Origin: Cyanidioschyzon merolae
Lineage: Eukaryota
Length of the DNA stretch: 64,000 bases
Assembly (NCBI GenBank): GCA_000091205.1
Contig: AP006483.2
Strand: one strand, 5' to 3'
This document shows positions 170-56,603 of this stretch, piece by piece (the first letter of the stretch is position 1; the number at the start of each line of letters is the position of its first letter). The position numbers and the translations under genes are program-made. Below the pieces are notes generated by a model. The model was not told the DNA's origin, made no database searches, and saw nothing but the letters and a program-made list of their open reading frames with translations.

Positions 170-1573
170 TTAGGCCGTTCCAAGCCCTGGTTCGGTTAGC
201 ACATCTGCATGATCATTCGGCGAGACCGAATCAGCACACTCGCAGTTCTTTTGTGCACAGGTCTTCTTTTCATAAGGTTTGCGCCGCTTCTGAGCCGCTG
301 CGACTGCATCGGCGCCGCAGGTTGAGGCTATGAGCAAGGGCGCGAGGTTCGGACGCATGCGACCGCCCGCAGATTGGCGCATTCGCGCGCGGAGAATGTT
401 CCGAAACTTGTCTTTGAGATTCATTGGCGTGCGTTTCGGATGGAAGCCCTCCATCTTATTGAGGATTGTCTTCCAGTTCCCGATGCCATAGAGCGCGACG
501 CCTTCGAGAAGGAGCCGCTCCTCTTCCTCGGTAAACCGCAGATACGCCATCCGTTCTTCTTTCTTTTTCTTGGGCTTTTTCATCCGCTGGTCAGCATGCG
601 TTAACGTTGCGTCGCTCCCCGAAGATGGCATGTCGGTGACATTTCCAGGTGGCGATGCAGCCGCGGCGGACGGAACTGCTAATGCTGGAACACCGTCCGG
701 GCGTGCTGCCTGTCCGGCCATATGAGCAGCTCCCATAGGCCAGTACGCTGGATGCGGCACTGTCGGACAGGCCTGGACCTGTGGTGGCCATGATTGAGGA
801 CTTGCATACCAGATCGGCCAGCTCATTTTCGAGCCAGACCCGACAACGCTAGTTGGGACGGCCCCAGTCGGAGGCAGGCACCGCGCCTCGTCGTTCCAGG
901 ACGACTTGGTTGTGGACCAGCCCTTGACATTCCGCTCAGTATTTTGGGCGAATTGCACCGTCTGCCAACAGTTTCTGTCCAGCAACACGGGTGCCGAGTA
1001 GGAGGGGTTGGCGTAAACCACCGGCGCTCGGCAACTCGGTTGTAGTTTCGGTCGCATGTAGGCAGCATCCACGGGCTCAGCGCCCGCTAGATAGTGCCCG
1101 GCGTAGTTCCAGTATACTGGGAGCCTCGATTCGATCCAGTTCGAGCGCATAGCGTGCCTCTGTACGGCAGGATGGTCCAGGTCCCAGTACAGCGAGCCCT
1201 GTGTTGCTGAATTACTCGCAGTGTTTGCTAGAGCGTCGGGCCCAGTCCACCCGCCGCTCCGCTGCGGTGAGGCTGGGTCGTTCCCCGCCACCCACGTTCG
1301 CTGCGTCAGCGTCTTTGCGTCCGAATCGTGCGACCTCGAACCCGCACGCAGTCCGTACGCACCGAGTCGCCCACAGGGCTTCGGTATAGTAGGCTGCGCT
1401 GGAGCGTCTCCAGGCGTTGACGAGGCCAACACGTCTGCAGCTCGAGAACCGCAGTGCGCAGCAGAGCACCACTCCGCCTCCATGTTCAAGTGGTGTCCAG
1501 ACTCGTATAAAAAACAAACGTAGCTGACGTTCTGACGTCCACGCAGCGCCCCAACGAGAACAGGGCACGACAC
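170..1573 (-). CDS. Myb/SANT (telobox-like) DNA-binding protein. A single C-terminal Myb domain follows a basic KKPKKKKEER run.
   Basis: The C-terminal region (~nt 380-560) reads MAYLRFTEEEERLLLEGVALYGIGNWKTILNKMEGFHPKRTPMNLKDKFRNILRAR. This is a typical single-repeat Myb with a telobox-like LKDKFRN motif, preceded by an NLS-like lysine run. The N-terminal half is low complexity, so the true start is uncertain. Confidence 0.55.
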   Translation of the reverse strand: MSCPVLVGALRGRQNVSYVCFLYESGHHLNMEAEWCSAAHCGSRAADVLASSTPGDAPAQPTIPKPCGRLGAYGLRAGSRSHDSDAKTLTQRTWVAGNDPASPQRSGGWTGPDALANTASNSATQGSLYWDLDHPAVQRHAMRSNWIESRLPVYWNYAGHYLAGAEPVDAAYMRPKLQPSCRAPVVYANPSYSAPVLLDRNCWQTVQFAQNTERNVKGWSTTKSSWNDEARCLPPTGAVPTSVVGSGSKMSWPIWYASPQSWPPQVQACPTVPHPAYWPMGAAHMAGQAARPDGVPALAVPSAAAASPPGNVTDMPSSGSDATLTHADQRMKKPKKKKEERMAYLRFTEEEERLLLEGVALYGIGNWKTILNKMEGFHPKRTPMNLKDKFRNILRARMRQSAGGRMRPNLAPLLIASTCGADAVAAAQKRRKPYEKKTCAQKNCECADSVSPNDHADVLTEPGLGTA

Positions 1574-1727
1574 ACCACCCGTCAGCCAACTGAACGCACG
1601 CGCAGAAAAGACCTCCAGGGCGAATGCACGACTCTAGAGGCACATGCGCCGCAGCGGCTGTCACTCGACGATGCCATGCCCCGAACCGCCGCCATCACCT
1701 GCCTTGCCTGCGCCAGGGTATCGCCAG

Positions 1728-1979
1728 CGTCGCCGCCGCCAACGCCATCGCTGCAGGCAGCCGCAAGGCATTGAGATTGTGATCGTTTCCTGGAGCGCGC
1801 CTGCGTTGCTGCAGTGCAGATATTTCTGATGCGCCGCCGCCGCCGCCAACGCCATCGCTGCAGGCAGCCGCAAGGCATTGAGATTGTGATCGTTTCCTGG
1901 AGCGCGCCTGCGTTGCTGCAGTGCAGATATTTCTGATGCGTCGTCGCCGCCGCCAACGCCATCGCTGCAGGCAGCCGCC
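1728..1979. repeat. Tandem minisatellite, ~106-bp unit x ~2.4 copies, upstream of the Myb gene.
   Basis: The unit cgccgccgccaacgccatcgctgcaggcagccgcaaggcattgagattgtgatcgtttcctggagcgcgcctgcgttgctgcagtgcagatatttctgatgcg is repeated head-to-tail at 1728, 1833 and (partial) 1941. It lies 155-400 bp upstream of the minus-strand start codon at 1573. Confidence 0.85.
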
Positions 1980-2014
1980 AATCCGCCTTCAATCGATTTT
2001 TCGTTGGATATAAG

Positions 2015-2450
2015 GTTTCCATCGTGGACCACGGATGCCGGATGGCGAGTTGACTACGGGCATTCGCGAAAGCGTCCATGATTCTTTACTCTGCGTCCAT
2101 TTTCCATGATCCGTACTTCCTCCTGAGTGTACGAATCGTTTTGGTGATTCCATCGTGCGCTGAGCGTCTGCTCTGCTGCACCCGCAATGGCGCCTATATC
2201 CTAGTGCGGATACAGCTCGAAGACAGGACGAGATGGTCATATGAATGAGGGCGCCAGCTCGAGGCATGATTCATTCAATACGGGATCGGAATTCACCATC
2301 TTTCTGGGAGCCTGCGTACTGCGCAGACAGACCAAGTGCGTGCGGCAGTGCGAAGCGATACGCTAGGAGCAAACGCTACCAGCGCGACACCGAAATGCAC
2401 TCCAGCCACTCCTAGTCGCAGAACAAAATGCGCTATGAACAAACTGTTCA
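2015..2450. repeat. Dispersed ~430-bp repeat, copy 1. Its homolog is at 16393-16830.
   Basis: Long stretches align with 16393-16830, for example ...ctgctgcacccgcaa...tcatatgaatgagggcg...catctttctgggagcctgcgtactgcgcagacag...ctaggag.... The copies are roughly 70-75% identical with small indels. Confidence 0.7.
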
Positions 2451-3528
2451 GATGTTGCAACAGGACCGGGTACTACGGGATACCTTGCTTCAGTTTTAAG
2501 CGCCCGGTGCCGTACTTGGCGATTATGAGCGTCTTCCAGGCGATCTCGCCGACAAGTACACTGTGCGCTGTACACGCAAGATCACGCTGTTCCATGCGAT
2601 AGCGCTGCTGTGGAACGCGATGTCGTCGATGATGAAACATCTACCAGAATGAGAATCCAGATCAGAAAAGCATTCGAGAGATTTTTGGCTGAGTGTATGT
2701 TCCATTCGTGCGAAGCGGTGACGCTCTCTCTATAAGAAGCGATCACTGCACCGACTCCAGTCTGAATGCAAGACCCTCTCCCTTGCAATCGGAAAGACGG
2801 GGAATGCCCTGCCATTCAATGATGCTGCTGGTGCTGCTCCTATTGAATGCCGCTCCGTCGATGGTTTTACAAAGACACACGAGGATTCGGCTGCGGAACG
2901 GGTTGATTATTCGGCGCAACAAGTTTCATAAACTACCGGCATACGCTAATGAAAAAGCCTTCAAGGCATGATGAAAATTTTCTACTCGTATATCCAGCAG
3001 AACGTATCGTGGCGCCCACGAGTTTCCTTCCAACAGAAAGATTCAAGGCTCGAAGCATGCGTGATTCGGACACGCTGACTGTAAGGAAAGGCAACGAATG
3101 GAGGCCTGTACTTATACATTGGATGGTGATATCCGTCATTATATGAAACCCCTTGTTCGAGAGCGCCACGAGTCATCTTGACGCGGGTGCCGTCACGCAT
3201 TCCAACGGCAATACGTCAACGTATCCACTCCAAAAGACCACCGAGTATGCCGAGACTGCGCATAAATCCGTATGTTCTTGTTGCTGAGCTTTGAATGGCT
3301 AAATAGCGCATCTGAAAAGCGTTCTGAAAAATTCTGAAAGGCACGAACAGAGCAAGCACTTCTACATCCATTCTAACCTGACACGAGCGTAGCGCCCAGA
3401 CGCCAGCCAGCGTTGTCAAGTTCCACGATAATCCGGCTCGTTCACAGGCGTTATCGGGCGCCATCATGGGACCAAGGTGGGCCGGTCCCGTTGCGCTCTT
3501 TTCTCGACAGTGGCCCCAGCTTCGATTG

Positions 3529-5619: not shown

Positions 5620-6330
5620 TCACTCAAGAACAGTGCCCCAGCGCATCCCAAATTAGATCCTCCGCTTGGTGCACCGACACCGCACACGCCGCGTTGGAGG
5701 GTAATCGCAGGCGGCACTGTTCATTGTTGTTCAACTTAATTGTGTTCCGCCCCCAGGTGATTGATATCAAATGGCATTTCGCGGCGCATAGCGGATGCGC
5801 TCATCCTTCGCTCATTCTCAAACCAACGAATTCCAAGCTACAGGTACAGACATGGACGTCAGAGATCCCGCGGAGCCGTCATCGCCGCGTGCCAGAGAAA
5901 TCCGTGCAAAATACGCTTTTCATCGACTATCGAGCGTCGAAGAGGAAGAAGAACAAGAAGAGGTGAGGTAGGCGAGAAAAGATGCTTGCCCGACGGGACG
6001 ATAACGAGACTGTATCGGCCCAGAGGGCACGTGTTCGAGGACTTGTCGCGTCGGTGAGTTCAGGCAGCGGCAATGCACGCAATGAGTTCGTGAACCGGGA
6101 CTTTAGCGCCGCTATGCAGAGTAGACGATTTGCGGTGCTGAAGATGAGATTCGAGGAGCTGACGCCATCGAACTTTATGGGGCAGCCTCTCTGGCTCGAA
6201 GTGTGCCTGGATAAAAAGCCAAGCCGATAGCTAGCGGCCGGTCGAAAAATGCCAGGAGGCGTCTTTGAGCGGGAGTGCACATACACTCTATGGTTGAGGG
6301 ACATTTTTTTGCTTCATTGACATGTGGAGC
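5620..6330 (+). mobile_element. Tc1/mariner-superfamily transposon fossil, copy A, 3' portion. It is truncated near the cupin promoter.
   Basis: The nucleotide sequence aligns with 27060-27600 and 13085-13495. Shared ORF-level similarity is ARVRGLVASVSSGSGNARNEFVNRDF versus ARVRGILASVTSTSGKQRMEFVYRDV. The 5' part keeps a degenerate ...CTDTAHAA... (HDNAPSHTA-like) block. The shared 3' end reads ctctat...ttcattgacatg. Confidence 0.6.
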
Positions 6331-7122: not shown

Positions 7123-9860
7123 ACCGAGTGGGCGCCCAGCATTCTCTCAACGGACAGAGTTGTTGAACGCCTCCGGCTTTGTTGAAGCGCTCTTCATGGC
7201 ATCTCCTTCCAGCACTCTAAAGTCCTGCTATAAAAGAAAACCACATTCCATCAAGAAGAAACGGTGAAAGCGTATGCAGCTGAAACTGGCTTTGATCTGC
7301 TCTTCGTGTCAGCGTATTAGACTTGCTTCCGTCTAGTCAAAGACGTCTCCTCTGTTGCCAAACGCCATTTCTATGTCCAGCGCACGATAGACGGCTCGTT
7401 CGCATCCGTGACACCAAAGTTCTGTGGCAAGTCGCTCGCTGTTACCTTCACCAGTCCTGAACTACTGTATTGCCCCCGAGCCCGTACACGACATCGAGCG
7501 TAGAGGTGCGCTTCGGTCTGTGCGCGTGATCGCGACGCAGAACGGAACAAAAAACCCTGCTGGAATACGCAGTGCATTCGTAGAGGAGGCGCGCTTCAGT
7601 GCAATCGATCATCCAGATCGTCTGAGAATCTAAGAATCAAAGAGATGCGGAGTGTAGCGATCACAAGCGTGACATCCCACCATGTAAAGAACACAGCGAC
7701 AAACGAGATGAGGTAGAAACCATCCGACAAAGGAGAGGCAGATCCCGCAGAAAAACAACGAGGACGAGGAGGGACAGCGATGAAAACCTGTCGGAGCAAA
7801 ATAGTCAGTTTGAAACCACTGTCAAGGTTTCGCTCCGAAAAATGCAGCGTGGGGATTCTGCAAAACAAACCGAGATGCAGAGCGCCATGATGGATAGTAT
7901 ATAGCTTCGTACTCGATCAAGGCTCGCCTAGCTTGCCTCACCATGAAGCGTCATCTCGAGGAACGATTTCTAGACGTTCCGGATGCAGGGCTCCCATCTG
8001 TCCATATTCCCCTGGAAGTTCTCGATCAGACCTTCGTGCGCTAACACAACTGGTGCTCGGCACAGAAGCGGCAGTACGGCCGGGATCGGAGGATCAGCGA
8101 TTTCGGCACGCGCTTCTCAGAATACCATGACGAGTTGCCATGCCGTATCGGCGATGGGCACAATCCACTGCGCAGTTGCCGAAAATCATCAAAGCAATCT
8201 CGAAAACCGTATGCGAGATAATCAAGAGGGTTTCATAGAAAGCACGCAGTGGGCGTTGCAGCCTCACCAGACTGACCCAAACATGAGGAACTTCATGAAA
8301 GCGGCTCTCCAGTTCGGAGATTACACGGGCGTCAGAATGGCTCACGCGAAGGAGCTTTGGCGGCAGTGCATGATACTGCGCTTTGGATCACCATCGGTTT
8401 CGGTTGTGCGGAGGCAAGAAGCTTGGATTCGCCAATTTGTTCAGCGAGCTGGAAAAGGAAACGATCGAGAAAACACGGCGCGAGCTCGTGGTAGCCTATG
8501 GAGCTGGACCTGCGGTACCAGGCGCGCGCCGCACCCCTGGCCCTTCGACGACAGCAAGCAGCAAGTGCAGGCATCGATTGTAACCGATTCTCATCCTTGG
8601 ATTCAGAAGGATCGAACCGCATCACGAGCACGGTCACACGCTGGAACAGGTAGAGAAAATGAACATGAAACGGATCCAGATGCACGAAACGGTAAACACT
8701 AAGATGGCTGAATATCGATTGGTGAGGCAATCGAGATTTCCTGGCTTCGTATGGTGTGATTCCACCAGCAGCGGAGCGCGCGAGCTCGCCATGCACAACC
8801 TCGTGAACGCCTCGATCCACGTCCGGAAATGTCGTGTGTTTCCGGAGCGCCCAGCAGCATTGCATCGAGCGAACTTTCAAGGAAATCACTGAGTATTCAG
8901 TGTGGACGTAATGCTGAACCGCTGAAGAGTCTCGATGAAAAACCAGCGGCCGTCAGAGGTGCATTGGATGCGCATCTAGAGCAATGCAATGGACTGGTAC
9001 GCGTTCGTAATGCAGAAAGGAATGGATTCCCGATATATACAACGAGAAAGGTTCTCTCGGACAATTGGTGATCGCTCACGGTAGTCCATTACTCGAAATT
9101 CCTCTGTGGCTGCTTTCATTGTCTGCAGAGAGGGATCGCATCGCACGTAAGATCAAGAAATTATAGACGAAGCATCCGGGGCCTACTGCCAGCGAATCTT
9201 CATATTCAAATGAAAGTCCATGGAATGGTGGCAGCGGCACTGGCGGTGTTAGATTTATGGAGACTGGAGGACATAAGGCGCAACCATGAAGGCTCCCTCG
9301 GATGTCGATACCAGTCGCGCCGTTCGGGATATCTCGCTCGTGTCCACAAAATCCAACACAGCCTAAAAACCCAGAGCGGGATGCGGCTACGAATATCTCA
9401 CGATAAACGGATGCTGGACGATGAGCCCTGAAGCACCCGACGTGTCTAGATGAGCAGCTAGTTTCTGGAATAGCCCGCTGCCAATCAACGGCGCTATCCA
9501 CATACCTGTGGCCCTGCGAGATGGAGCACCTGGAACGCAGCTCGTTCCTGGAAGTGCCTTGCAACCTTAAAAGTGTACATCCTTGGGCCCTTATCGCAGA
9601 CAAGAGGTAGTTCTTTCGTGGCGACTCGCCTCAAGCGAATGCATATGCCGTAGGTTACTTTATAATCGGGGGTGTTTCTAGAACGGGTATCTCTTGCTGG
9701 GTCGTATGCTTTTTCTGAGCGGAAGCGCACGAGCGAACGTTTCAGGTCGCTGAGGCCTTGGACGCCTCCCGCTGCGACGATAAACGACGCGCGTGACTTG
9801 GCCACAGTCGTTCTGCGCACCCGCACCCAGCTGTTCGCACAAAGCAGCACTGGTGCGGTC

Positions 9861-11234: not shown

Positions 11235-11835
11235 CGACAGACCCCGACGCCAAGCCCTGTAACGCACAGTACGGCGCACGGGATGGTGTGCGCTGCGCCC
11301 CCGACGCAATTCTCAAAATCGCTGTGCGGAATTCGGAGCGCAGTGCCCCCGATGCACAGCCCTGAATCCCTGGGGGAATTCTCAAAATCGCTGTGCGGAA
11401 TTCGGAGCGCTGTGCCCCCGATGCACAGCCCTGAATCACTGGGGGGGAATTCTCAAAATCGCTGTGCGGAATTCGGAGCGCTGCGAACCCGATGCACCGC
11501 CCTGAATCACTGGGGGGAATTCTCAAAATCGCTGTGCGGAATTCGGAGCGCTGCGAACCCGATGCACAGCCCTGAATCCCTGGGGGGAATTCTCAAAATC
11601 GCTGTGCGGAATTCGGAGCGCTGCGAACCCGATGCACAGCCCTGAATCCCTGGGGGAATTCTCAAAATCGCTGTGCGGAATTCGGAGCGCTGTGCCCCCG
11701 ATGCACAGCCCTGAATCCCTGGGGGGAATTCTCAAAATCGCTGTGCGGAATTCGGAGCGCTGCGAACCCGATGCACAGCCCTGAATCCCTGGGGGGAATT
11801 CTCAAAATCGCTGTGCGGAATTCGGAGCGCTGTGA
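11235..11835. repeat. Tandem minisatellite, 70-71-bp unit x ~8.5 copies, immediately upstream of the bromodomain gene start.
   Basis: The unit gaattctcaaaatcgctgtgcggaattcggagcgctg[ct]g[ac][ac]cccgatgcacagccctgaatc[ca]ctggggg starts at 11376, 11447, 11517, 11587 and so on. Each unit has two EcoRI sites and an internal inverted pair gctgtgc/gcacagc. The whole unit is conserved with no unique spacers. Confidence 0.9.
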
Positions 11836-11899
11836 ATGGTATCCCTCGTAGAGATGCTATGGATGCTATTCTTAAGAGTGATGGTATGAATGTTGACGA

Positions 11900-13495
11900 T
11901 GATTCTGCTTCCCGTGTCGCTCGCAAACGTTCGTGCGATTGCAGCAGCGCGTTCCATGTGCACAGCTACGTATCCGGTTGGAGATTGTGCGAGACATTGC
12001 AGGAGTCTCACGTGCGTGCATGTCGTCAGGCTTGATGACGAATCGTTTACCATGGAACATTGCTGCATCTTACGGACGTTCAATGCAATGCTGTCCAATT
12101 CCCGCTGAGTGTAGTCGACTGCTTTTTCGCAGCGTTGAGCAGGAGATCGAAACCGCTGTAGGATGTACCCGATAGATCGTAGCCGAATCGCTTGTCGGCT
12201 ATATTTTCCCTACTGGAGCGTACAAGCAGGATTGCATTCATCATTCAGGAAGGCCATACCGCAGTACTCAGATGATTGAGGAACAATGAAACAAAGAAGT
12301 ATCTGCGCTCTACGTCAGAAACTGATTTTGTCAAAGACTGTTTGCTGTCCATGGGACAAGTAACAACGGTTGATCATCTTACGGGACGCAAAAGCGACGA
12401 TCGAAGCAACCACGCATGTCACGGTTTCGCAGAAGCTGGCGCGTGCGGACCCGAAAACCCTGGGATACAATCGCCAAAAAAGTTCTAGTTCACGCGCGGC
12501 CATCTTCCAACGAAATCTCAACGACAGCATTCCTGGAACTTTGCGACCGGTGTGAAGCACAGGAGCATCGGTTAGTTCTTCCAGTTGATGACGCTTGATT
12601 TGGCCGAAACAGTCAGAGCGTATGTGGGTAATCGCGGGGCGCGGAGCCCGTTATATGAAAGATCGGACTCGAAAAGACGGACATCATCATGTGTTCTAGC
12701 TGCAGAGGATCTTTTTGGCGGCCTCAGTTTCGCAATTGGAGAGGACTCGTACACCACCGACCACTTCGTCGATTCAACGAAGACGTTTCCCTGGAATCTG
12801 GCGACGTCCTTCTATTGGACAACGTTTCATTTGACCATTCCCATTGGGTTCGAGCTTTTGCCGATCCTATCGGGGTAGAGGAGCTTTTCATTCCTCCGTA
12901 ATCTCCGTGGCTCAACCAGATTGAAAGAGTTTTTTCTAGTCCGAAACATAATGATCGCTCCACTGAGCGTTTTGCCGAAGCGTTCAGCTCACGATGTCAA
13001 ACCAGGGCGCATGTCGTCATTGTTGCACAGGTGCTTCTACCTCCTGCAATGACTTCATCTATGGGCATAAAGGAGCCAGTTCATTCAAAAAAAATTCAGG
13101 GATGAGCTTCGGTATACACTAGAGAAGGTCGAGATGGAGAGAGGGCAGCGGAGCGCTTCGGCGACAGGAACGCATTCAGAGCCGACGGAGTAGCAAATGG
13201 TAAAAAAGGCACGAGTCCGAGGAATCCTTGCATCGGTGACTTCAACCAGCGGCAAACAACGCATGGAATTCGTGTACCGAGACGTCAACGCTGCTATCTG
13301 TACCAGAAGATGCGTGGTTCTGAACACGAGCTCAGAAGAGATGACGCGATCGCACTTCGCGGTGCAGCTTGCAAGGCTCGAAGCGTACAATCGAAAACTG
13401 AAGCCGGTAGCATTCCGCCGGTCCGCAGAGGCGAGAAGACGACTGTGAGTGAGTACCTATATTGACCCTCCATGGACTTCAAACATTTTTCGTTG
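11900..13495 (+). mobile_element. Tc1/mariner-superfamily DNA transposon, decayed near-full-length copy B.
   Basis: Over ~1.5 kb the sequence aligns with copy C (25950-27600). Degenerate transposase motifs are in mariner order. The first-D region reads ...NEISTT...CDRCEAQEHRLVLPVDD (~12500-12600). An HDNAPSH-like block reads LLLDNVSFDHSH (~12815). A PYSPDLNPIE-like block reads ELFIPP*SPWLNQIE (~12890). The frame is broken by stops and frameshifts, and the 5' boundary is approximate. Confidence 0.6.
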
Positions 13496-15012: not shown

Positions 15013-16215
15013 TCAGCGGTGCACCTCGCTGATCCCGAATGCGTCGCTCTGCTTCACGCGCTCCAGCACTGCGGTGAGCGCCTCCTCTGTGGCGAGTGGG
15101 CCGCTAAATGTGCTCAGTTTCCATTCGGGGTGTTCTTGAATTACGGCCCGCACGTGCTCATGGGAAACACTCGGCAGGTAGGCGCTCCCGCACCATTCAG
15201 CGAGTTCGATGTCGTTGTCGTCGTCGATCATGGCAACGGCCTGGTCCCTAGTACAACCAGTTCGCGCTAAAATGTATTCGGCTACATTGCGCTTCCCAGA
15301 GCATCCGGGAAACACATCCAGCTTTCCCAAATTGGACGCTGTCTGCAAGCCCAGCGGGGTGACTCGAGCCCGGATATCCGCGGTTGCGGCCTGCATGTGC
15401 TGCTCGGTGACGACTCCGTTGACCGCGCTCGTCGCTGCTGTCGACGACGCAGGGCGTTCCCACTGCACGTTCCTAGACCGCAGCGACGACGCGATGTCGA
15501 CGCGGAATGCAGTGTAATATTCGCGGGTGTCGAGCATCCATCCAGCAGTCGCCAGCTCGGACGCCGCTTGCCACAGTGGTGCAACGGGGTCAGGGTGCTC
15601 GTCACTGCTCCCATCGACCGCCGTGGACGGGTACGGGCTATCCTGCTCCCGCGGTACCACGCACTCGTCAGCTGCACACCAGGGGTGCGGACCAGTCCAC
15701 GGCTCGAGCCGTCGCGCCCATGTGACGTCCTCAACGTACGCTGTGTCCGCTCGCCACATCAGACGTCCGCCGTTCTCCCACGCGATAGCGTCGACCACCG
15801 GCAAGAGCGGCAGTCGGCGGTAGAGGGTGCTGGAGCGCGCTCCAGTCAACAGCGCCACGAAGACGCCGTGCACCCGAAGCGTGTCCACGAGTTCGACAAC
15901 GCGTTCGCTAAGGTATCCGCAACCTTTGGTCAAAGTCGGGAGCACCCTACAGGGAACGATTGTCTTCGGTAGGGTGTCGTAGACGAGGTTGACTCGACCG
16001 GAGACTCCGTCGTCCGGCTCGATTCGAATTCCATCACTGAGCTGGTCCTCATAGTGTATGAGTGTCCCGTCCAGGTCACTGAAAAGCGCAAGCGCGTACT
16101 TGCGAGCGTTCTGCTTCCGTGGTACCTCCATGTACCCCGCAGCGCAGACGACGGTGAGCGGTGTGTGTCCCGGTGATCGAGTCCCAGCGTGGCGTTCCAG
16201 CCACTCCAGCCTCAA
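15013..16215 (-). CDS. HAD-superfamily phosphatase, subfamily IIB (Cof or sucrose/trehalose-phosphatase-like).
   Basis: Motif I is LFSDLDGTL (DxDGT). The C-terminal block is GKLDVFPGCSGKRNVAEYIL...AMIDDDNDIEL, with the conserved K and the DD of motifs III/IV. A large cap insertion typical of HAD-IIB lies between them. The likely true start is the internal Met of MEVPRKQNARKYALALF. Confidence 0.55.
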   Translation of the reverse strand: MRLEWLERHAGTRSPGHTPLTVVCAAGYMEVPRKQNARKYALALFSDLDGTLIHYEDQLSDGIRIEPDDGVSGRVNLVYDTLPKTIVPCRVLPTLTKGCGYLSERVVELVDTLRVHGVFVALLTGARSSTLYRRLPLLPVVDAIAWENGGRLMWRADTAYVEDVTWARRLEPWTGPHPWCAADECVVPREQDSPYPSTAVDGSSDEHPDPVAPLWQAASELATAGWMLDTREYYTAFRVDIASSLRSRNVQWERPASSTAATSAVNGVVTEQHMQAATADIRARVTPLGLQTASNLGKLDVFPGCSGKRNVAEYILARTGCTRDQAVAMIDDDNDIELAEWCGSAYLPSVSHEHVRAVIQEHPEWKLSTFSGPLATEEALTAVLERVKQSDAFGISEVHR

Positions 16216-16392
16216 ACCAGAGATAAAGCGTTCAACACACCGGTTAACTCGGTCGATAACAGTGTTTCAGGGCAGGGTTACGTAATCCCGTTACCCTGGC
16301 ACCGACGCCGCGGCGCTCATGGACGCAGGTGCTTGGATGCCGAGCACGCGGCGAATGTAGTTGCGATTTCGCTTCCGACAACAAAAACGCTT

Positions 16393-16830
16393 ACATGGAC
16401 CATGGATCCAAACTTGTGGGATGTATAGGTATTTGCTTTCTCGAGAGCATCCATCATGCTGCTGTGCTTTACCTCCAGGTTCCACTACTGATAGTTCCTC
16501 TCGGATGTACTGGTCGTTTCGTGCGTTCTATCGTGCGCCGGGCGCCTGCCTTGCTGCACCCGCAACCGCAGCGACACCGTTGGTACGAATGCATCAACGA
16601 GGTCGAACGGCATTCTCATATCACTGAGGGCGTCTGATCGACGCGTTTTTCTGTACGACACGAAATCGGATTTCATCATCATTCTGGGGGCCTGCAAGCT
16701 GCGCAGACAGGTACATTGCCTGCGACAGCGCAAAGCGGTCTACTAGGAGTCCAGTATGACCACCACGACACCTGGATGCAGCCTGAATAACCTCAGTCCC
16801 AGAATAAACTGCGTTTCGGACGAGTTGCTG
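16393..16830. repeat. Dispersed ~430-bp repeat, copy 2. Its homolog is at 2015-2450.
   Basis: It is collinear with 2015-2450. It sits 180 bp upstream of the HAD gene start (16215, minus strand), in the same relative orientation as copy 1 with respect to the Myb gene. Confidence 0.7.
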
Positions 16831-17455
16831 CTCTGAACTCACCACGGCACTCGCTACTGCTGAGGCAGATAATGCGCGAGTCGAGCAGACTCGTCCGACG
16901 TACTGGACCTGCCTCCTAGGAGGTGAATTTTCGATAATATGGAAACCTTTTCACACTTTTCAACGTTTACCGCAGAGGAGTAAAGAAGCTGTTGTCTCGT
17001 TGCTAGTTCGTGCCTAGATTCTAGGCTTTTTTTCTGTTTATAGAGTGCGCCGCGTGCACGCACTGCAATCTCGCACGCAATCCGCACAGCGACGTGCGCG
17101 GCAGCGGGCGCTTGTGAGAACGCACTCATAGCCTTGGCGCTCGCCCGCTCTACGCTTATACTGCTCGTGTGGAGTCGTGCTCCGCACTCGCTCAGTGCAG
17201 GTAGGAAGTGGTCGTGTGTGTACACTCACAACGCACTTGTGACCTGTGCGAGCGCTGTACATAACGCGCTTGGTGTTTGTCAAGCGCACAGGAGTTGGCG
17301 GAGACCGGCATCGAGTTCAACACTGCGCTACGCGCTTCTGCGCTGGCTACGACAGAACGCGGGTGCGGCACCAGGAAACACACGTGCGTTCTAGAGAGGT
17401 ACCCGTTTCCTGTACACTGTAAAAGCGTACGTGACGGCGCTTTGGTCCTGGGCGG

Positions 17456-18676
17456 GTGGTGTTGCAAAGTGCTTTCACGCGTCGTTTAAACCGTCTGCCA
17501 AGAGTAACAGACGCAAAGACGATGCCAGACGCTGGAGACGCATCTGTTGCCGCTGCGAGGTGGCTCGAAACGCTCGGATATAGTCCCGAGCGCCCTGCCG
17601 AAGCGCTTGCGTTGGCGGTGCACGCGCTGCTCCTACGCCACGGCTTGCGGACGCGTGAGACTGCCCTCGAGGTGGACCTGAACCGGGACCCGTTGCCTCA
17701 GGCACCGGCAGCGCTGCCGAGCGACTGGCTGCCGACCACCGAGCACGCCGGCTACGGAACCCAGTATCGACATTTCCGCAGCGCTCTGCTTTTCCAGATT
17801 CGCTCCGTACCGTGCGGTGTGGATCGACTAATGGTGACTGGTTTCGCCACCGAGGAACCGGACCGAGTTGCGACGCTGTCGCTTCGAATCAGCGACTACA
17901 TTCGGACACATGTCTGGGAACAGAGTCGCGCTGCTGGCTCGCCACCCGATTGGACCATGCTTGTCCAGGGCTGGCAGCGTCTCGCAACCCTCGTCCAAGT
18001 TGACCTGGTGCACACGTTGATTCCGGATAGTGCCAAAGATGGATACGAAGCTCGTGTACAGGCACAGTCGGCGACCGCCGGGAATCCGTCGACAGCGGCC
18101 TCGACGGGCGACCACGGTGCCGGCACCCGAAGCGAGCCCCGCAGTGGAGGCGGCCCCAGCGCGGTGCCGTTCGGGTACCGCCAGCCGCGGCCCCCGCAGC
18201 CACAGTTGCCGTCATCAGGGGTGCTTCCAGTCGTTGGCGACGATGATCGCCTGCCCGCACTGGGACCTGTTGGCGACTGGCGCGGCCCGTCTGTACCGGG
18301 ACTGGGGCCCCCGTTCCGCACCGATGATGAACGTCTTGGAGGCGGAATGCTCATGGGCCCGCGCCATCCGGTTTTCCGCTCGGGCTTTGAAGACGACGAC
18401 GACGACGACGCACTGCATCGCTTCAACGACCCTGACCGCGATCCCGGTTTCCCGCCTGACCTGCGGCGCCGTGGTGAGCGCCCTCGCCGAATGACGGAAC
18501 GGGAACGTCTTGCGCTGTTGCCGCCAGGCTCGCGGGTGCCGCCGCCCCCGGGCGCGCGTATCGATCCGTTCGGGCCGCCGCTCCCGTCGCCACCCGACGG
18601 GTACGGTCAGGGAGCTTCTCGTCATCGTCGGTACGGCGATCTGGACCCGCCACCACCGGATACCATGTATATGTAA
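17456..18676 (+). CDS. PSMF1: Proteasome inhibitor PI31 (PSMF1/Fub1 family).
   Basis: The C-terminal Pro-rich tail matches PI31: PPGARIDPFGPPLPSPPDGYG...DLDPPPPDTMYM versus human PPGARFDPFGPIG...LPPPGYDDMYL. Also matching are ...HPVFRSGFEDD and DPDRDPGFPPD. The N-terminal alpha/beta FP-like region reads EALALAVHALLLRHGLR. The start may be the internal Met at 17522. Confidence 0.65.
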   Translation: MVLQSAFTRRLNRLPRVTDAKTMPDAGDASVAAARWLETLGYSPERPAEALALAVHALLLRHGLRTRETALEVDLNRDPLPQAPAALPSDWLPTTEHAGYGTQYRHFRSALLFQIRSVPCGVDRLMVTGFATEEPDRVATLSLRISDYIRTHVWEQSRAAGSPPDWTMLVQGWQRLATLVQVDLVHTLIPDSAKDGYEARVQAQSATAGNPSTAASTGDHGAGTRSEPRSGGGPSAVPFGYRQPRPPQPQLPSSGVLPVVGDDDRLPALGPVGDWRGPSVPGLGPPFRTDDERLGGGMLMGPRHPVFRSGFEDDDDDDALHRFNDPDRDPGFPPDLRRRGERPRRMTERERLALLPPGSRVPPPPGARIDPFGPPLPSPPDGYGQGASRHRRYGDLDPPPPDTMYM

Positions 18677-25949: not shown

Positions 25950-27600
25950 AAGGACAGGGTGCACGGGTACGGAGTATCTGCAGCTTTCGCTGGTACAGAG
26001 ACGCACGCGCTTTAAGTGGCATCGGATGCGCCAGGTCGTTGACCCTAAGCTTGCCTCGTTGGCGTTGCGCAACAAGGCAGTGGCCGCCGCTGCTACGCAC
26101 TGCGTTACGTTCCTTGCTGTACGCCATGCTTATAGTCTTTCGTTTCAGTCTTTTCCCCTTTTCTGGATGTAATCGAGTGCTTTTTTTTGTAGTGCATAGC
26201 AGGAGATCGCCATCAAGATGCAATGTACTCTATAGATCGTAGATGGATTGCCTGAAGGATACATGCTTTACTGAATCGTGCAAGGAGGACTGCATACCTC
26301 CTTAAAATGAGTCGTATCATAGTACTCAGATGGTTGAGGAACTCTGAAAGAAACAAGTATATGCTCTCGCGACAGAAACCCGATATTCCTGCCGGCTGAT
26401 TGCGGTAAACGGTAGTGAAGCGGTTCCTTGAACATCTTACAAGCAGCAAAAAGCGACCATTGAGGTCACGATAAGCGTCTCTGGTCTTGTCCAGCTCGTT
26501 CGAGTGGTCCTCAAATCACTGGAATACAGTTGCAAAAAAGTCCAGTATCACGTACGGTCATCTTCCAGTGAAGTCGCAACGACCGCGTTCCTGAAATGCA
26601 GCGATCCATACGAAGCACAGGGACGTCGCCTTGTTTTTTTCGGTTGACGATCGTTGCTTCGGGCACACTGGTCGGAACGTATATGGGTACTTGCGTCTGC
26701 GGAGCTCGTTCCATGTGCAATCGAACCCGTAGAGCGCGATATCATCATCTGTTCGAGCTGCAGTGGATTCATTTGACGGCTTCAGTTTCGCTCACAAAGA
26801 AGGTTCATACAACAGCACCAACCACGTTGTCGAATCATTGAAGACTTTTCCCTTGAAGTCTGGCATCGACCTTCTATTCGACAACGTCGCATTTCAGCAT
26901 GCAGCTTGCTTCAGATCTTTTGCAGATTATGTTGGGGTAGAGCTGCTGTTCATCCGTCCGTACTCCCGGTGGTTCAGTTCCGTCGAAAGAGGGTTTTCGA
27001 TCGCGAGACACAATGATCGATTCACTCGGCGAATTAATGATAACCGATGGGCATACAGAGTTCCGTCGATTCGGTGAAATAAGAAATCCCAGGGAAAGGT
27101 ATGGGCGTGCAAGTCGGGGATCCCGGCGGGCGGTCATCGCCGGCTGCCCAAGAAAAAAAACGAAAATATCCCGTTCTCACCGACCATCGAGCGAAGAAGA
27201 GCAACTGTCGAAGAAGACGACGCAAAAAAAGGGAGACAGATGAGAGAACGTGTTTCCCCGACGGGTCGAGGACGAGACTGTAGTAGCACAGGAGGCATGA
27301 ATTCGGGAAATCCTTGGAACAGTGCGTCCACTCAGCAGTAATGCACGCAAAGAGCTCATGAACTCAGACCGCAAAGCGCTTTCAACATCAGACAATGTTT
27401 GGTGCTGAAGACAAGACCGGAGGAGCTGATGCGAGCCAACTTCGTGCGGTAGCTTCTCAATGTCGAAATGTACAAGGAGAAACAAAAACCGACGAGAGGT
27501 TGCCGGTCGAAAACGGCTAGGAGGCGTCTGCGTCTGGGCTTCCATGCACTCTATATTATTGTGAAACGTTGTTTGTTTCATTGACATGCATGTAGTGGCT
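25950..27600 (+). mobile_element. Tc1/mariner-superfamily DNA transposon, decayed near-full-length copy C.
   Basis: It is collinear with copy B. The HDNAPSH-like block reads LLFDNVAFQHAA. The PYSPDLNPIE-like block reads ELLFIRPYSRWFSSVERGF. The first-D region reads KHRDVALFFSVDD. TIR-like ends are agtactcagatggttgaggaac...tgaaagaaacaag (5' side) and cttgtttgtttcattgacatgcatgtagt (3'). The frame is broken. Confidence 0.6.
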
Positions 27601-31471: not shown

Positions 31472-31698
31472 GATCGATCCATCGATCCATTTTCTCATCG
31501 GCAAAACGTTTCCCTAGGCCAGCGTTCTCCGATTATGCGCATTTTTTTTCTTTCTTTTTTTGTGTTATTTTTTCAGTGCGCGGTATCGATCCATCGATCC
31601 AAAGATCCTCCGGCAAAACGTTTCCCTAGGCCAGCGTTCTCCGATTATGCGCATTTTTCTTTTCTTTCTTTTTTTGTGTTATTTTTTCAGTGCGCGGT
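31472..31698. repeat. 113-bp tandem duplication (x2) in the 5' region of the Bfr1-like gene.
   Basis: tgatcgatccatcgatccattttctcatcggcaaaacgtttccctaggccagcgttctccgattatgcgcattttttttctttctttttttgtgttattttttcagtgcgcggt is repeated at 31584. Each copy ends in a long polypyrimidine tract followed by cag. Confidence 0.85.
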
Positions 31699-34640: not shown

Positions 34641-37600
34641 ATGGGTTGTCCACGTGACATGCGCTGTTTGCTTCTATTCGGGAGAAGCATCTGGGTGCTG
34701 GTCGGCGCACAAGAACGTCTGTCCGAAACAGACCCATGTGCTTGATTGAACGTGCTCATCGATGCGAGTTGCGCCTCGATACTTTTCGCAGGGAAGACGG
34801 TTTCTTCGTGGAAACGAACTTTAACCACAGGAAGCTACTGGATGGAAGCCTCGTCAGTACGAATCGTACCGAAAGGCGTGCCTTTGATTCTGTCCATGCA
34901 CATGAGAGCGAAACCATGCAGGGATGCCCAGCATCATGTCTCATCTATGGGGAGCAATACCGCTTCGTACGTGATTCGATGGGTACGCGCGTTGTCGCCT
35001 GTGCTGCGGCGCGTGAACCTCTCCGGAGCTGGAAGCCTTGCCAGGAAATCTAGAGCTCCAGCTCATGCGCGCGGCATGCTCCACAATCCATAGAGATCAA
35101 GATAGCCATCGCTGATCATGGCAAGCACGCTCATCCCAACGAAAACGCGATGCACCCAAAAATGCAGAGCGCTTCCGTTCCTGTTCACAGAAGGAAGCGA
35201 TGGTAACGGTGTAGGAACGCATTCGTCAGTTCGAAATGCGTTTTCTGGTGTACCGAGGCTGTGCGCCTGGATACGAGCGGTTTTGCGAGGCAACGCAGCA
35301 CATCGCAGATGCATCTACCTGATAGAGAGGCGTCTCCGGTCACAAGCGCGAGTGCCAGAGCCATTCTCGAGGCACAAGTCCTCCCTCCGTTCGGTTTGGC
35401 GGAACGAATATGCGGAAACCTGGAAATCATCGCAGAGTCACAGCCGGGATGCGCCCTTGACTCCAAGTCGGCGAAGGCGGCTTTCGTGTACTGCGCCTCG
35501 GTCAACGGAAAGCGAAACTTGCATGGAGCGAGTGACTTTATTGGCGCCTCTGCCGATTGTATGCTGTTCTCGTGGATGTCTGCGCATGTCCAGCACGAGC
35601 GCATAGCTACGATCGGACGCGCTGCTAACGCAAGTCGGGCCATGCGCCTGCCATGAAAAATGGCATGTGCCCGACCCGTCTCTCTACACCCGTGTCAGAT
35701 TAAAATGGTAGCGTGGATTACTTGCTTTTTTCCAGCTACTGGATATTTTCTCGGAACGGGTTTTTAGATGTACAGCCTCGAGATTCGAAATGCGGCAGTA
35801 AAGGTTTACGGATTCATAGCTAGTTTGAGGATTCTCGCTCCTCTTGTGAGAACGGCTTCTTTAACTCTCTGCCGCTTGATTTCGTTCCGTCACATGAATC
35901 GAGGTGATTCGTGATGCCATCGAAAAAGCGTTGATAAAAACATCGACATCGGTATCCTATTCTTGCGTGCCCGTCTACGAGCACTCCTTGCATGTGGCAT
36001 GTTCAACTTGTTGATTTTTGGAGTTCTCGATGCTTTTGTCTCAGGGCAACTCATGGGCGCAATATTTCGCGTCACTGGATTATCGAGACAAATACGCAAC
36101 GTCGTCTCTAGGCGCTGACCTCACAAGTGCATGATGAAACTTCACTGGACTCTTGATACGGCATAATCGATTCCGTTAGAGCGACCGATGCTCCGCTCTT
36201 TGTAGTCATTGACAAGGCGCCATTCGACAGCAGTATGATACTTGTCTGATCCGACAAAGAGGCTGGTGCTGCCGTGTTAGCCTTCTCAACGAGCGCAACT
36301 GAGGCCGCCAAATCAATACATCCCAGCTGGAATAGATTACGATCTCATCGTTCTCTGTCGGTTCGATCATACAAACGACGGGTCCCTTTTCTACGAATGC
36401 GCATAGACAGTCCGGCAATTTCATCGGGTAAAAGTCTCATCGACCGAAAAAAACAGTTCGACGTCCCACTGCTGTATTCGGATGGCGACGTTCCAAGAAA
36501 GCTGCAGCTGCGATTTCGATGGGAAGGGGCCGTGTTTGAAATAGAACCCTTTTTTGCAACTGTATCCGAGTCTTTTCTGGACCATACGAACTAGCTGTTG
36601 AGAAACAGAGACGCCCTTGCCGGCCACTATCGTCGCTTTTGCTTTCCCATAGGTGATGAACAGGTCTTTTTCTACCACTGACAACAAGTGCTCTTAGACA
36701 GTCCCAGTTTTTGGTGCGGAGCGCATATGCTTGTTTCTTTTATTGTTCTATACTTATCTGAGTACAGTGGTATGACGGAACTGAATGAGGAATGCGGTCC
36801 TCCTTGCAATGTTCAGTGAGGAAGATATCCTACATTCAATTCGTCTACCATCGATAGGGTAAATTGTTTCTTGATTTGGATGCCCTGCTATGCACTGCAG
36901 AAAAACATTCGATTACACCCAGGGAAGGGTAACATAATTGAGTTGAAAGCGTATAAGACGCCCGGCCCCCTGACCGTTTGCATGGAAAAATGATTGTGGA
37001 CTTGGGCTTCAGTCAACGCAGTGACTACTTCCAATAAAGTATGTGTCTGGGGTTCGTACGATGAGGGAGTACACGGATCGAAATTTTTCGACATGTTCTC
37101 TATCCCAGGTTTTCCTTCAGGTAACTGCTTAACATGGACAACATCCCGTTCCACAAATCCTATAGCGCATAGAACAGCTTGCTTTTGCATGCGCAGCGTA
37201 TAAACTAAGCGCTAAGGGGATCTCCCCGAAGAAGTCCGTGATCAAAAGGCACCACAACAGGCGCTTAGACTGAAGAGCAGATCCGGGCCAGTCTTCAGTA
37301 CTCTTTTAGGACGTACACTGAGCCAGGGAGCGAGCCTTCATGGACCATAGGGTGACACTCGATGGATGAAGTGCTATGAGCACCCCGGAGCGCACCTGAC
37401 CTCAGCCAAATATCACTGACACAGAAGGCGCACCAACGGCATCTACAAACAAGATGAAAATGGCAAAAAATATTAATCACAACGAACCTCTGTGGAGCAA
37501 ATTCGATGACAACGGCTGAAAGCCGTAAAAGACTAACTCGCCCGCTGCCATGAACTTCCTTCGATTGCTGACAAAGGTACCGGGGAAACACGGGAGAGCA

Positions 37601-41335: not shown

Positions 41336-42874
41336 TTTCGCTTCACGGTTGGTTGCCTCTGTTACACCGGCAGCAGCGGTTGCAGTAACGCTCGAGCGAC
41401 ACCCAGCAGAAGCACAGCAGGCTACTGGGCCTGCAGTGCGCGAGGCTGGACCCGTAGCCGGGAGCAGCTGGCAGCGGTACCGGCAACAGACGAACGAAGT
41501 GCAACACGACCCGCTGGCGCCGAATCCCGCTGCGTCATGGACGATCAGGACCACCTCGTATTGTCCGCGGTGGATCAACAGATTCGGAAATACTTTGGCG
41601 TGGATATTCTGGGCCCTGGATCCGTAGAACCTGCTGGAAAAATCTAGCATACAGTCTCTGGAGGTGTATGCCACTGGTGACCGTTGCTCCCGAGCGACCT
41701 GCGTGTATGCACGGACGCTTTGCTCGCGAATATTTACGGGTGCGTCAGCATCTGTCCATCGACCTGTATGCACTGATGCTTCGCGCTCGAATGTTTTCAG
41801 GTGCATCGTCGTCACTGCATTGGCCTGGGGCGCACCCGCTCGCGACCATGAACGCGATAAACAGGTAGATGTCGCCATGCTGCTTCATTCATGGAGCGCT
41901 CTACGAGTCCTCGTGCTCTGGGCAGTACACCATTAGCTTGTTCTCGATACTATGTTTGCATATGAGATTAGCTGAGCTGACATCTTACAAATGGCCAATT
42001 CGCTGCGAACCGGTGCCCACTGCGCTGAGCTACGAGTACGATTCCTGCAGCAAAACGCCCCTTGAGAGGGAATGCGCAGGTTGGATTCTCTGCCAGGTAT
42101 CCGTACGCATGCAACAACATGATATTCGGTGTTGCGCTTACGTGGCGAGCGCGGTGCCACCAGGCTCGTCGGATGGCTTCAGGAATGTCCCTCGCAGCTG
42201 CCTCGCAGAGGTCGTTATCGATGGAAGTGCATGTTGCAAGTGTACAGGCACGTGCTCGAGCGTCGCATTTCTGAACGACGCGGAATCCAGGCAAGTCTCG
42301 GGTATATTTGGCCAATACAGAGGGAACAGCTGGGCAGAGAAAATGGGTGTTTCGCTGAGCCTTGCATGATTGCAGTTCGCGACAACATCGTCTCGTCCAG
42401 AGAACGCACAGAGCAGCAGCACTCGCTTCACGGAATTCGCATATGCGTCTCAAGTGCGCGTTGTCCAAATAGAACTCGATATAGGACTTGACAAATTTGC
42501 GGGTCTGTACTGGGAAATGAAGCGTTGTGGATCTGCTTGTAGTGCGTCGCGCAGCAAGGGTGCGTATCGCGCTCGCGAGCATGTCTTGCGCATGCGCGCG
42601 TGCTCGCAGCGGCAATCAAGCCCAGCTTCCGTATGAGTTACATCGCATGGCGCGACAGTCAGGGAGCAGCAAAGCCTGATCATGGATTTATTTTTGCAGT
42701 ACGCTCCAAACCAAAGCCGCCGTCTATCCCCGTGGCATTTTCGGAACAATGCCGAAATGGCTCTCAAGGAACGCATCCCACAGGACAATCGATCCCCGAA
42801 TCCCGGCTGGCTGGGGCTCGCGGCAAGCCATCCATGCAGCGCTGAATCGCGCTGAAGCCCAAGGCCTCTCTGCC

Positions 42875-43190
42875 GATCCAGTTCGTACATGCACCATGCG
42901 TGTTACAACTTTAGCGGGAAATATGTAGTTGCGTGCGCGAAACCGCTTCCGCCGATCTAGTTCGTACATGCACCATGCGTGTTACAATTTTAGCGGGAAA
43001 TATGTAGTTGCGTGCGCGAAACCGCTTCCGCCGATCTAGTTCGTACATGCACCATGCGTGTTACAATTTTGGCGGGAAATATGTTGTTGCGTGCGCGAAA
43101 CCGCCTCCGCCGATCTAGTTCGTACATGCGCCATGCGTGTTACAATTTTAGCGGGAAATATGTTGTTGCGTGCGCGAAAGCGCTTCCGCC
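42875..43190. repeat. Tandem minisatellite, 79-bp unit x 4, between the divergent capping-enzyme and TBCB genes.
   Basis: The unit gatc[ct]agttcgtacatgcaccatgcgtgttacaa[ct]ttt[ag]gcgggaaatatgt[at]gttgcgtgcgcgaaaccgc[ct]tccgcc occurs at 42875, 42954, 43033 and 43112. Confidence 0.9.
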
Positions 43191-43388
43191 GATGTACGCG
43201 CGTCGGTGCTGTGGCGACGATTGCGGCCCCGAAGCCAAGCGGCGCTCGCCGAACAACAACAACAAGCGCACCGCACCGCATTCGAGACGCGATCCCTCTA
43301 GCTTGCTAGCGCAGACCACGACGCTGGAAGAGGCGGCACGCTCGCAGCGAGCGACGGGCTCTCGGGCTGGCCTCTCACTACAGGCAGT

Positions 43389-46299: not shown

Positions 46300-47300
46300 A
46301 GCGCTGTAGATGTTGCGATCGCCGGAGTGGTGCGGGCACGCGTCAGCTTGTTCAACGGAGCAGATATGCAAATCTCTGATCCTATGATGGATGCGCACCT
46401 CATCTTCTGTCCCGAGCATCAGCTATGTTTTCGCATGGGAATTCGATCGAAGTATTCCACAGACAGCTGGACAGCTTTCTGTCCTGCTCTAGGAACGCCT
46501 GTGAAGAGTTGGTCGACGAGATGCGTCAAGCCGAGAGCAGACGAGCGATACTCTCTCGAGTTAGACTCTATTCGATGCTCGCTGGTACGCTGCATCTATC
46601 AGAGTCGCGTCTGCGAACGACTCGTCAATTGGGCCTTGCGCGTAAAACTGGCGTTTGAACAACGTCCAGTACGCTCTCGACTCGATTGTACCGCAGATAA
46701 TAAGCTGGCAGGCAGACCAGCTCAATGCTAGTCCCAGATGCCTGCTGCTTGACCCCTGTTTTCTGGTGGAAAGCGACGTTTTCTATGATCAGGACAGAGT
46801 CATCTGGGAACGATGGGTCACGACTTGTGCTTCGACGACGGATGAGGTATTGAACGATCCTGCCCGTTCTGCGGTTTGCCGGTCACCACACGAATGCAAT
46901 GCGGTTTACGGCGGTAGCTGGTCCCCTTCTCGCTTGTGTTCCATTTTCGAATGACAGTTTGCCGCTCATGGAGAGCCCATATACAACTCTATTATCTCTC
47001 GCCGATGAAGCCCCATTGAATGAGACAAATACAGGGAGTTCCTGTGACAAGCGTTCGCGTTTCAGCACGAAATCGATGAAGCATTGGTCATCTTCAGATG
47101 GTCTCCCAGAGAAGCGCATTTTTTTCTTTATACACCTGTATCTCTGTATCCTGCATATATCCATGGTGCGGACGCTTCACAAGCTGTGCCCTCTCTGGAA
47201 GCATTTTTCAGATCATGTACGTAGTCGATTGGACTGATGAGTAGGTAGTGTTCCGATAGCGTTTAACATGTTCTTTTTTGGGCACACGACCATCCGAATA
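46300..47300 (+). mobile_element. Tc1/mariner-like transposase fossil, copy D (HTH region and first-Asp region), 3'-truncated.
   Basis: An HTH-like block reads ...RVCERLVNWALRVKLAFEQ. The first-D block reads EAPLNETNTGSSCDKRSRFSTKSMKHWSSSDGLPEKRIFFFI, matching the mariner consensus HELNE...GDEKWIFF. It is homologous to 6790-7122 and to the internal regions of copies B and C. Confidence 0.5.
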
Positions 47301-56289: not shown

Positions 56290-56603
56290 CTATGATGCAA
56301 TGCAGCAATCCCCAATGTATGATGTCCATTATGATCCAAGATTGAATCAAATGGACTCAAGTGCGAACGGGTGGCGATCTATGATGCAATGCAGCAATCC
56401 CCAATCTATAACGTCCATTATGATCCAAGATTGAATCAAATGGGCTCAAGTGCGAACGGGTGGCGATCTATGATGCAATGCAGCAATCCCCAATGTATAA
56501 CGTCGATTATGATCCAAGATTGAATCAAATGGACTCAAGTGCGAACGGGTGGCGATCTATGATGCAATGCAGCTATCCCCGCATCCATCATATCCATAAT
56601 GAT
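56290..56603. repeat. Tandem minisatellite, 89-bp unit x ~3.5, 160 bp upstream of the thiolase start.
   Basis: The unit tatgatgcaatgcagcaatccccaatgtat[ga][at]cgtccattatgatccaagattgaatcaaatgg[ag]ctcaagtgcgaacgggtggcgatc occurs at 56290, 56379, 56468 and (partial) 56557. Confidence 0.9.

Follow-up and report, generated by a model that had tools for sequence, protein, structure and literature searches.

The DNA analysed here, a stretch of 64,000 nucleotides referred to as the window, is part of chromosome 1 of Cyanidioschyzon merolae 10D; the products of five of its ORFs match the proteins BAM78751/54/55/58/59 (CYME_CMA037C) exactly. Pfam searches with the large ORFs returned eukaryotic families (Myb, cupin, bromodomain, HAD, PI31, pyruvate kinase and NAD(P)HX dehydratase), and the nearest named relative of the HAD protein comes from Cyanidiococcus. 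The order of the genes for a 1400-aa protein, PI31, HAD, a bromodomain protein, two cupins and Myb is kept in the two related species used for syntenic comparison, the P0002 species and Cyanidiococcus. Upstream of the Myb gene lie a tandem array (1731-1978) and, with its 5' terminus about 15 bp beyond the right edge of this array, the first of two similar sequences (copy A, 1994-2480, plus strand). The second (copy B, 16363-17043, plus strand) occupies half of the divergent spacer between the HAD and PI31 genes.

Copies A and B are separated by about 14.4 kb on the same strand. Their local alignment joins 2025-2474 to 16396-16858 with 64.6% identity over 466 columns. With E values of 2e-43 (nhmmer) and 8e-21 (blastn; core 2060-2369 versus 16435-16749) the similarity is far beyond chance, and the recurring non-coding pair in equal orientation that a preliminary description of this DNA had noticed is therefore real. 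Its limits had been drawn too narrowly (2015-2450 and 16393-16830): depending on whether a short 5' extension described below is included, copy A spans about 1994/2007-2480 and copy B about 16363/16376-17042, that is, some 210 bp past position 16830. Likewise, the distances to the neighbouring genes, given there as 440 and 180 bp, amount to about 510 bp between the true 5' end of copy A and the Myb ATG (1483) and about 232 bp between that of copy B and the HAD ATG (16131). A profile built from A and B detected no third copy of the unit within the window.

As described previously, the element has neither coding capacity nor a tRNA-like part. The six tblastx frames are similar in score and are all interrupted by stops, and mismatches are spread evenly over the codon positions (47/52/47), so that a hidden coding sequence, for which neither tblastx nor codon-position periodicity gave a signal, was rejected. 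Identity with a known ncRNA or tRNA was rejected as well because ARAGORN and Rfam yielded no match in the window.

The tandem array upstream of the Myb gene

The array next to copy A is genuine, yet its period is 107 rather than 106 bp, and Tandem Repeats Finder (TRF) places 2.3 copies with 98% matches at 1731-1978; a second repeat search aligned 1728-1834 with 1835-1941 at 98% identity. Orthologues aside, neither the rest of the window nor about 0.9 Mb of retrieved loci contains a relative of the 107-bp unit. Nor was any relation found between the array and the transposon described below or other copies of the element; because no other element copy is accompanied by a relative of the array, the idea of a compound repeat block finds no support. 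In orthologous contigs the copy number is 2.3 (the window, L014, L022 and L045) or 1.3 (L026). Being locus-specific and variable in copy number, the array is a young, polymorphic minisatellite that adjoins the much older copy A by chance. It arose recently, by a local tandem duplication upstream of Myb, and independently of the transposon, to which it is unrelated.

Minisatellite-like arrays are also present at 11308-11836, 31473-31698, 42872-43193 and 56289-56580 of the window. Together with 1731-1978 they have periods of 70-112 bp, 2-7.6 copies and 92-98% identity, and such arrays are located about 120-600 bp upstream of the start codons of several window genes. In Cyanidiococcus a 95-bp x 2 array precedes the HAD orthologue (L011:9512-9697); none was found in 21 kb of the P0002 species. 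Minisatellite arrays may thus be a general trait of promoter regions in these algae.

Copies A and B match a published transposon family

Two families described in the C. merolae genome by Bao & Jurka (2013, PMC3627910) bear directly on the repeated element. CMe-1A is present in about 150 copies of about 3 kb that are about 80% identical to the consensus, whereas TE-N2_CMe comprises about 70 non-autonomous copies and is over its whole length 95% identical to the 5' 635 bp of CMe-1A. Both were reported to lack terminal inverted repeats (TIRs) and determinable target-site duplications (TSDs), and both were left unclassified (PMC3627910). Membership of copies A and B was assessed by alignment to the 3,169-bp CMe-1A consensus given in Additional file 2 of that study (PMC3627910), with TE-N2_CMe equated with the 5' 635 bp of CMe-1A on the strength of the published statement.

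Both window copies align with the beginning of this consensus. Positions 22-460 match copy A (2027-2467) with 72.4% identity in blastn (E=8e-63), and local alignment extends the match to positions 5-472 (2007-2480, 71.7%). For copy B, blastn aligned positions 8-619 with 16384-17012 (77.3%, E=3e-132) and local alignment positions 1-644 with 16376-17042 (77.2%). An nhmmer profile of the long element gave E values of 1e-80 (1997-2478) and 7e-124 (16384-17047) for A and B, respectively. The sequence to the right of copy B, past consensus position 644, is unrelated. From these alignments we conclude that B is a complete solo unit of the TE-N2_CMe type and that A is a relic which has lost about 165 bp at its 3' end. 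Both carry a 5' extension, T-rich in copy A, ahead of the published consensus start. At 72-77% identity to the consensus they are somewhat more diverged than the published value of about 80%.

Immediately right of copy A, a repeat at 2501-2778 belongs to an old dispersed family (65-79% identity) that is unrelated to CMe-1A and has further members at 49245-49519 and 37110-37198 (minus strand) of the window and on contigs L053, L067, L077 and L086.

Copy number and architecture at other loci

A metagenome collection was scanned for exact matches to the best-conserved block of the unit, the 18-base sequence GCCTGCNNNCTGCGCAGACAG, which is specific within the window. The scan retrieved 87 loci, concentrated in a few hot-spring-type metagenomes, and the A+B nhmmer profile matched 54 times on them, mostly over its full length. 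Dereplication at 95% identity with flanks included left at least 21 distinct genomic loci on C. merolae-like contigs, two of which correspond to A and B themselves, being orthologous and about 98% identical to the window sequence. Since an exact 18-base match was required, 21 is a lower bound, and for the same reason the conservation peak at the motif is partly an ascertainment effect. The possibility that only these two copies exist, which would have favoured a segmental duplication, is contradicted by these independent loci as well as by the roughly 70 and 150 copies in the literature.

Unit copies are 65-75% identical to each other. When loci with long flanks were compared, similarity began abruptly at the left edge of the unit and stopped in most of them at about 600-640 bp; 11 solo metagenome copies end at consensus positions 632-646. 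In six or seven loci similarity continues to about +3.1 kb with 72-75% identity. These long copies have the same architecture as CMe-1A. No second unit was found at their far end within up to 10 kb of flank.

The long element encodes a Fanzor1 protein

The extension of the long copies encodes a protein of 550-750 aa on the same strand as the unit, and the CMe-1A consensus contains the corresponding ORF at 906-3110 (734 aa). Its recurrent motifs are GADPGxTNI, AYGAGRW, EFRTSYTHHELGC and VNRDFNAAINI. The family comprises 224 or more clusters in the metagenomes studied here and, beyond these, 1,891 representatives at E<=0.001. A single sequence or a shallow profile of the ORF, used as query, found nothing in Pfam, NCBIfam or PDB. 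With a profile of 40 members, by contrast, the only PDB entries matched were those of Fanzor1, in three groups: Parasitella 9cf0 (E=1e-24), Spizellomyces 8gkh (E=4e-16) and Guillardia 9cer (E=3e-10). The alignments cover the RuvC and zinc-finger motifs. A split RuvC D...E...D triad is apparent in the 40 diverse members, with D398 (DPG) and E569 (dEFRT) invariant and D636 (nRDxNAAxN) nearly so, and the zinc-finger region lies between the RuvC E and D. The Cas12f1-like TNB domain (PF07282) was touched by 6 of the 40 members. The AlphaFold2 model of the ORF protein has a mean pLDDT of 32.6, which is too low for it to be usable. On the basis of profile and motif similarity, the long-element ORF is identified as Fanzor1, a eukaryotic TnpB-like RNA-guided nuclease. 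The Pfam label PF26935.1 is precomputed on many family members (P0082-P0201), and a Pfam-A search of the same proteins did not return it.

Termini and self-complementarity of the unit

The 5' terminus conserved among the 21 loci is (G)CGATTTTTTT.CGATGACAAAACG, in which (G)CGATTTTTTT lies about 12 nt upstream of the published CMe-1A consensus start (window positions 1994-2006 and 16363-16375). Solo units terminate in ...GTCTCTGTTCTTTG, with or without TTCTAT. In agreement with the preliminary description no TIRs were detected, as the score did not exceed that of shuffled sequences (P=0.20 and 0.27). TSDs were not detectable in two aggregate tests in which flank matches within the same copy were compared with those across copies (4.9 versus 5.2 and 5.0 versus 4.85). 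The 3' end of the unit bears no similarity to that of its parent. In a comparison with Helitrons, TC/CTRR was not seen in the termini (G)CGATTTTTTT... and ...TTCTTTG(TTCTATATAG), with the ends of these 20-28% diverged copies being accurate to within a few bases. A SINE was rejected because ARAGORN and Rfam found no Pol III head and the unit ends in ...TGTTCTTTG.

The unit consensus is self-complementary beyond dinucleotide shuffles on the plus strand (z=-3.6) and on the minus strand (z=-5.5), and a conserved hairpin is present around CTGCGCAG. A two-sequence alifold of A and B gave a weak signal on the minus strand only (z=-2.6); two-sequence covariation has no meaning here because transposon copies decay neutrally.

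Other relics in the window

Several further remnants of the same transposon family are dispersed in the window. A CMe-1A 3'-end fragment with the Fanzor1 C-terminus and the right end lies at 13102-13454 (plus strand; consensus 2737-2995, 72%, E=4e-35; nhmmer profile positions 2729-3058) and corresponds to residues 612-729 of the CMe-1 protein with 50% identity (E=1e-23). At 5723-6264 (plus strand) an internally deleted relic joins profile positions 804-1021 to 2826-3073 (nhmmer: 5723-5961, E=1e-10; 6018-6264, E=3e-29); its 3' part was also aligned by blastn (consensus 2850-3082 with 6033-6264). The same deletion pattern recurs in a second relic at 27093-27542 (plus strand; profile 914-1023 plus 2832-3079), which was detected by nhmmer (27093-27216 and 27292-27535), blastn and tblastn.

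More diverged Fanzor-like coding remnants, with 30-43% amino acid identity to CMe-1 or P0201, are found on the plus strand at 8308-8922 (best match 8392-8922, E=2e-35) and on the minus strand at 44768-45757, 46297-46574 and 59449-60333. Rather than a host gene, the plus-strand ORF 7983-8702 probably represents one of these remnants, in which case the antisense ORF 8332-8889 (minus strand) is probably spurious. In addition, a repeat family of about 860 bp, termed module X, is represented by three copies with 66-68% identity (12110-12964, 26168-27026 and, on the minus strand, 36247-36922). In two cases it lies directly left of a CMe-1A interior or 3'-end relic (13102-13454 and 27093-27542). For the Fanzor transposon, module X may stand for an alternative 5' module, or for a subfamily of composite deletion derivatives.

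Orthologous spacers

The intergenic DNA at the orthologous loci of the two syntenic relatives yielded no similarity score above shuffles, which is attributed to saturation of neutral DNA between these species. An element of the A/B type was likewise undetectable in the orthologous spacers of the P0002 species and Cyanidiococcus. The divergent PI31-HAD spacer measures 1324, 1349 and 1246 bp in the three species (window 16131-17456; L007:8651-10001; L011:8754-10001) and is thus nearly constant although about 680 bp of it in C. merolae are copy B, which is absent from the other two. This suggests that the spacer keeps its length while the sequence within it is replaced. The spacer between cupin and Myb does not stay constant; in the same order of species it measures 3395, 2149 and 944 bp, so that it grows from the last to the first.

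A putative empty site for copy B on contig L013 was rejected as an assembly chimera: in this metagenome contig, a class A RNase P RNA of bacterial type (L013:1-495; Rfam RF00010, 150.7 bits) is fused, at window position 16278, to the algal HAD locus. Another contig, L012 (a Logan contig from the same species), ends at window position 16416, about 40 bp (16376-16416) inside the 5' end of copy B; a break at this point is explained by assemblers being expected to break at dispersed repeats.

Position and orientation relative to genes

Genes were represented by ORFs that begin with ATG, reach at least 150 aa and are not Fanzor-like; 17 independent copies had a left neighbour so defined. In 13 of these 17 a divergent ORF of 231-898 aa starts 69-849 bp (median about 300 bp) from the 5' end of the unit, the two 5' ends facing each other, and four are in tandem with their neighbour (binomial p=0.049, two-sided). 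For the 13 copies with neighbours on both sides the classes divergent, tandem, tandem and convergent are populated 8:3:1:1 (chi-square p=0.018), a count for which the right-hand ORFs are short and unreliable. Copies A and B both follow the majority head-to-head pattern. The earlier remark on their common orientation relative to the nearest gene thus extends, if marginally, beyond two copies. Between the end of copy B and the PI31 ORF (GTG at 17456), which runs in the same direction, lie about 415 bp. This layout is much like that of CMe-1A, where the Fanzor1 ATG lies 270 bp downstream of the unit.

Discussion

Copies A and B are, with very high probability, dead copies of the catalogued TE-N2_CMe, which forms the 5', non-coding part of the Fanzor1 transposon CMe-1A. 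The presumption of a mobile element made in the preliminary description is borne out by the sequence match to a catalogued transposon and by the number of independent loci. The family itself, its copy number, the absence of TIRs and TSDs and its relation to Fanzor1 are already known from the 2013 publication on the same genome. Like TE-N2_CMe, the window copies belong to C. merolae 10D and to a multi-copy class of about 635-645 bp that is old (about 72-80% identity to the consensus). Copy B resembles it further in covering the whole unit without a Fanzor ORF, whereas copy A lacks the terminal portion. With CMe-1A they share the first 644 and 472 bases, respectively, yet differ from it as solo 5' units devoid of both the Fanzor ORF and the right end.

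The unit resides within CMe-1A upstream of the Fanzor1 ORF and in the same direction, where it probably serves as promoter and 5' leader of the Fanzor1 gene and would carry the left-end cis sequences required for mobilisation. It has also been amplified alone, as a non-autonomous element, by a transposition machinery, and A and B are two old, dead insertions of the approximately 635-bp TE-N2_CMe. Given their divergence from the consensus and the lack of an ORF, A and B are best regarded as neutral, inert relics. This view leaves unexplained the self-complementarity of the consensus (z=-3.6 and -5.5) and the orientation of 13 of the 17 copies.

Non-autonomous derivatives of TnpB and Fanzor elements (such as the PATE-like ones of IS200/IS605) offer a further comparison. 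They too are short and non-coding, have terminal sequence in common with a nuclease-carrying parent, outnumber that parent or rival it in copy number, and are rich in hairpin potential. PATEs and MITEs, however, keep both ends of their parent, whereas the TE-N2_CMe unit keeps the 5' end only; together with the absence of TIRs and TSDs this disposes of the MITE-like label in its strict sense. Fanzor1 has been found in Helitron, Mariner, Sola and Crypton contexts. The TE-N2_CMe unit is associated with no recognisable transposase, TIR, TSD or Helitron-type terminus.

A solo LTR would account for a discrete unit of about 640 bp with many solo copies and fewer long copies that begin with it, and the A/B alignment does start at TG. 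This origin is nevertheless practically excluded: long copies on loci of 8-15 kb carry one unit at one end and no second direct one, their interior is a Fanzor1 ORF in place of gag-pol, with no reverse transcriptase, integrase or gag, TSDs are missing, and the true 5' terminus is (G)CGATTTTTTT.CGATGAC rather than TG. Just as improbable is a local segmental (ectopic) duplication, in which A and B would be part of an old duplication of about 14 kb, as hinted at by three repeat pairs in the window spaced 14,058-14,380 bp apart. The flanks of A and B are unrelated, other pairs occur at other offsets, the unit is present at 19 or more further loci spread over different contigs, and the coincident pairs themselves derive from this transposon family or from a second family of repeats. 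Multiplicity, inconsistent offsets and unrelated flanks led us to reject this explanation. The fold of the consensus, far below dinucleotide shuffles, the minus-strand alifold signal and the conserved hairpin would be compatible with a structured ncRNA, for example a guide-RNA scaffold of Fanzor1, with solo units as RNA-only satellites. We consider this very unlikely. Characterised guide RNAs of TnpB and Fanzor map to the ORF's 3' end and the right end and are not known from the 5' side; moreover, the fold signal is stronger on the strand antisense to the ORF, Rfam gave no match, and the peak of conservation at the hairpin is partly a product of the motif-based search for loci. Pairs in the core hairpin are nearly all invariant and hence uninformative on this point.

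The alternative that deserves most attention, unlikely as we judge it to be, is that the unit is a co-opted or targeted promoter-proximal module, integrated preferentially or retained head-to-head at the 5' regions of genes, which may provide promoter, insulator or upstream-RNA function to Myb, HAD and PI31. It draws on the prevalence of copies facing a divergent ORF start and on the skewed neighbour classes, on the position of copy B in the HAD/PI31 divergent spacer in the direction of PI31, and on the strongly structured consensus. The sample is small, however, and the p-values are marginal; ORFs stood in for genes, and those to the right were short and unreliable. Furthermore, copies are 20-28% diverged from the consensus without a signal of constraint, and two relatives, which have a PI31-HAD spacer of the same length, lack the element in their orthologous spacers. 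The label of a duplicated promoter module is superseded by identification of the element as catalogued TE-N2_CMe, the 5' region of CMe-1A.

As a discovery the finding is minor. Its value is one of annotation: most of the dispersed repeats with 65-72% identity in the window turn out to be relics of one transposon family, and the minisatellite upstream of the Myb gene is told apart from the transposon next to it. Three points may be new, though none is strong yet: the head-to-head bias, a 5' terminus slightly longer than the published one, and the structure of the consensus. There is a small chance that the placement of units head-to-head about 70-850 bp upstream of host starts reflects targeted integration or retention in promoters, with the structured consensus being recognised as ssDNA or RNA. 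If true, this would mean promoter-targeted, orientation-specific integration by the machinery of a Fanzor1 transposon, or units kept in bidirectional promoters of the host. Fanzor1 elements are now studied as eukaryotic RNA-guided nucleases, and genome-wide confirmation of the bias in position and orientation towards gene starts would hint at the way in which CMe-1A and TE-N2 move.
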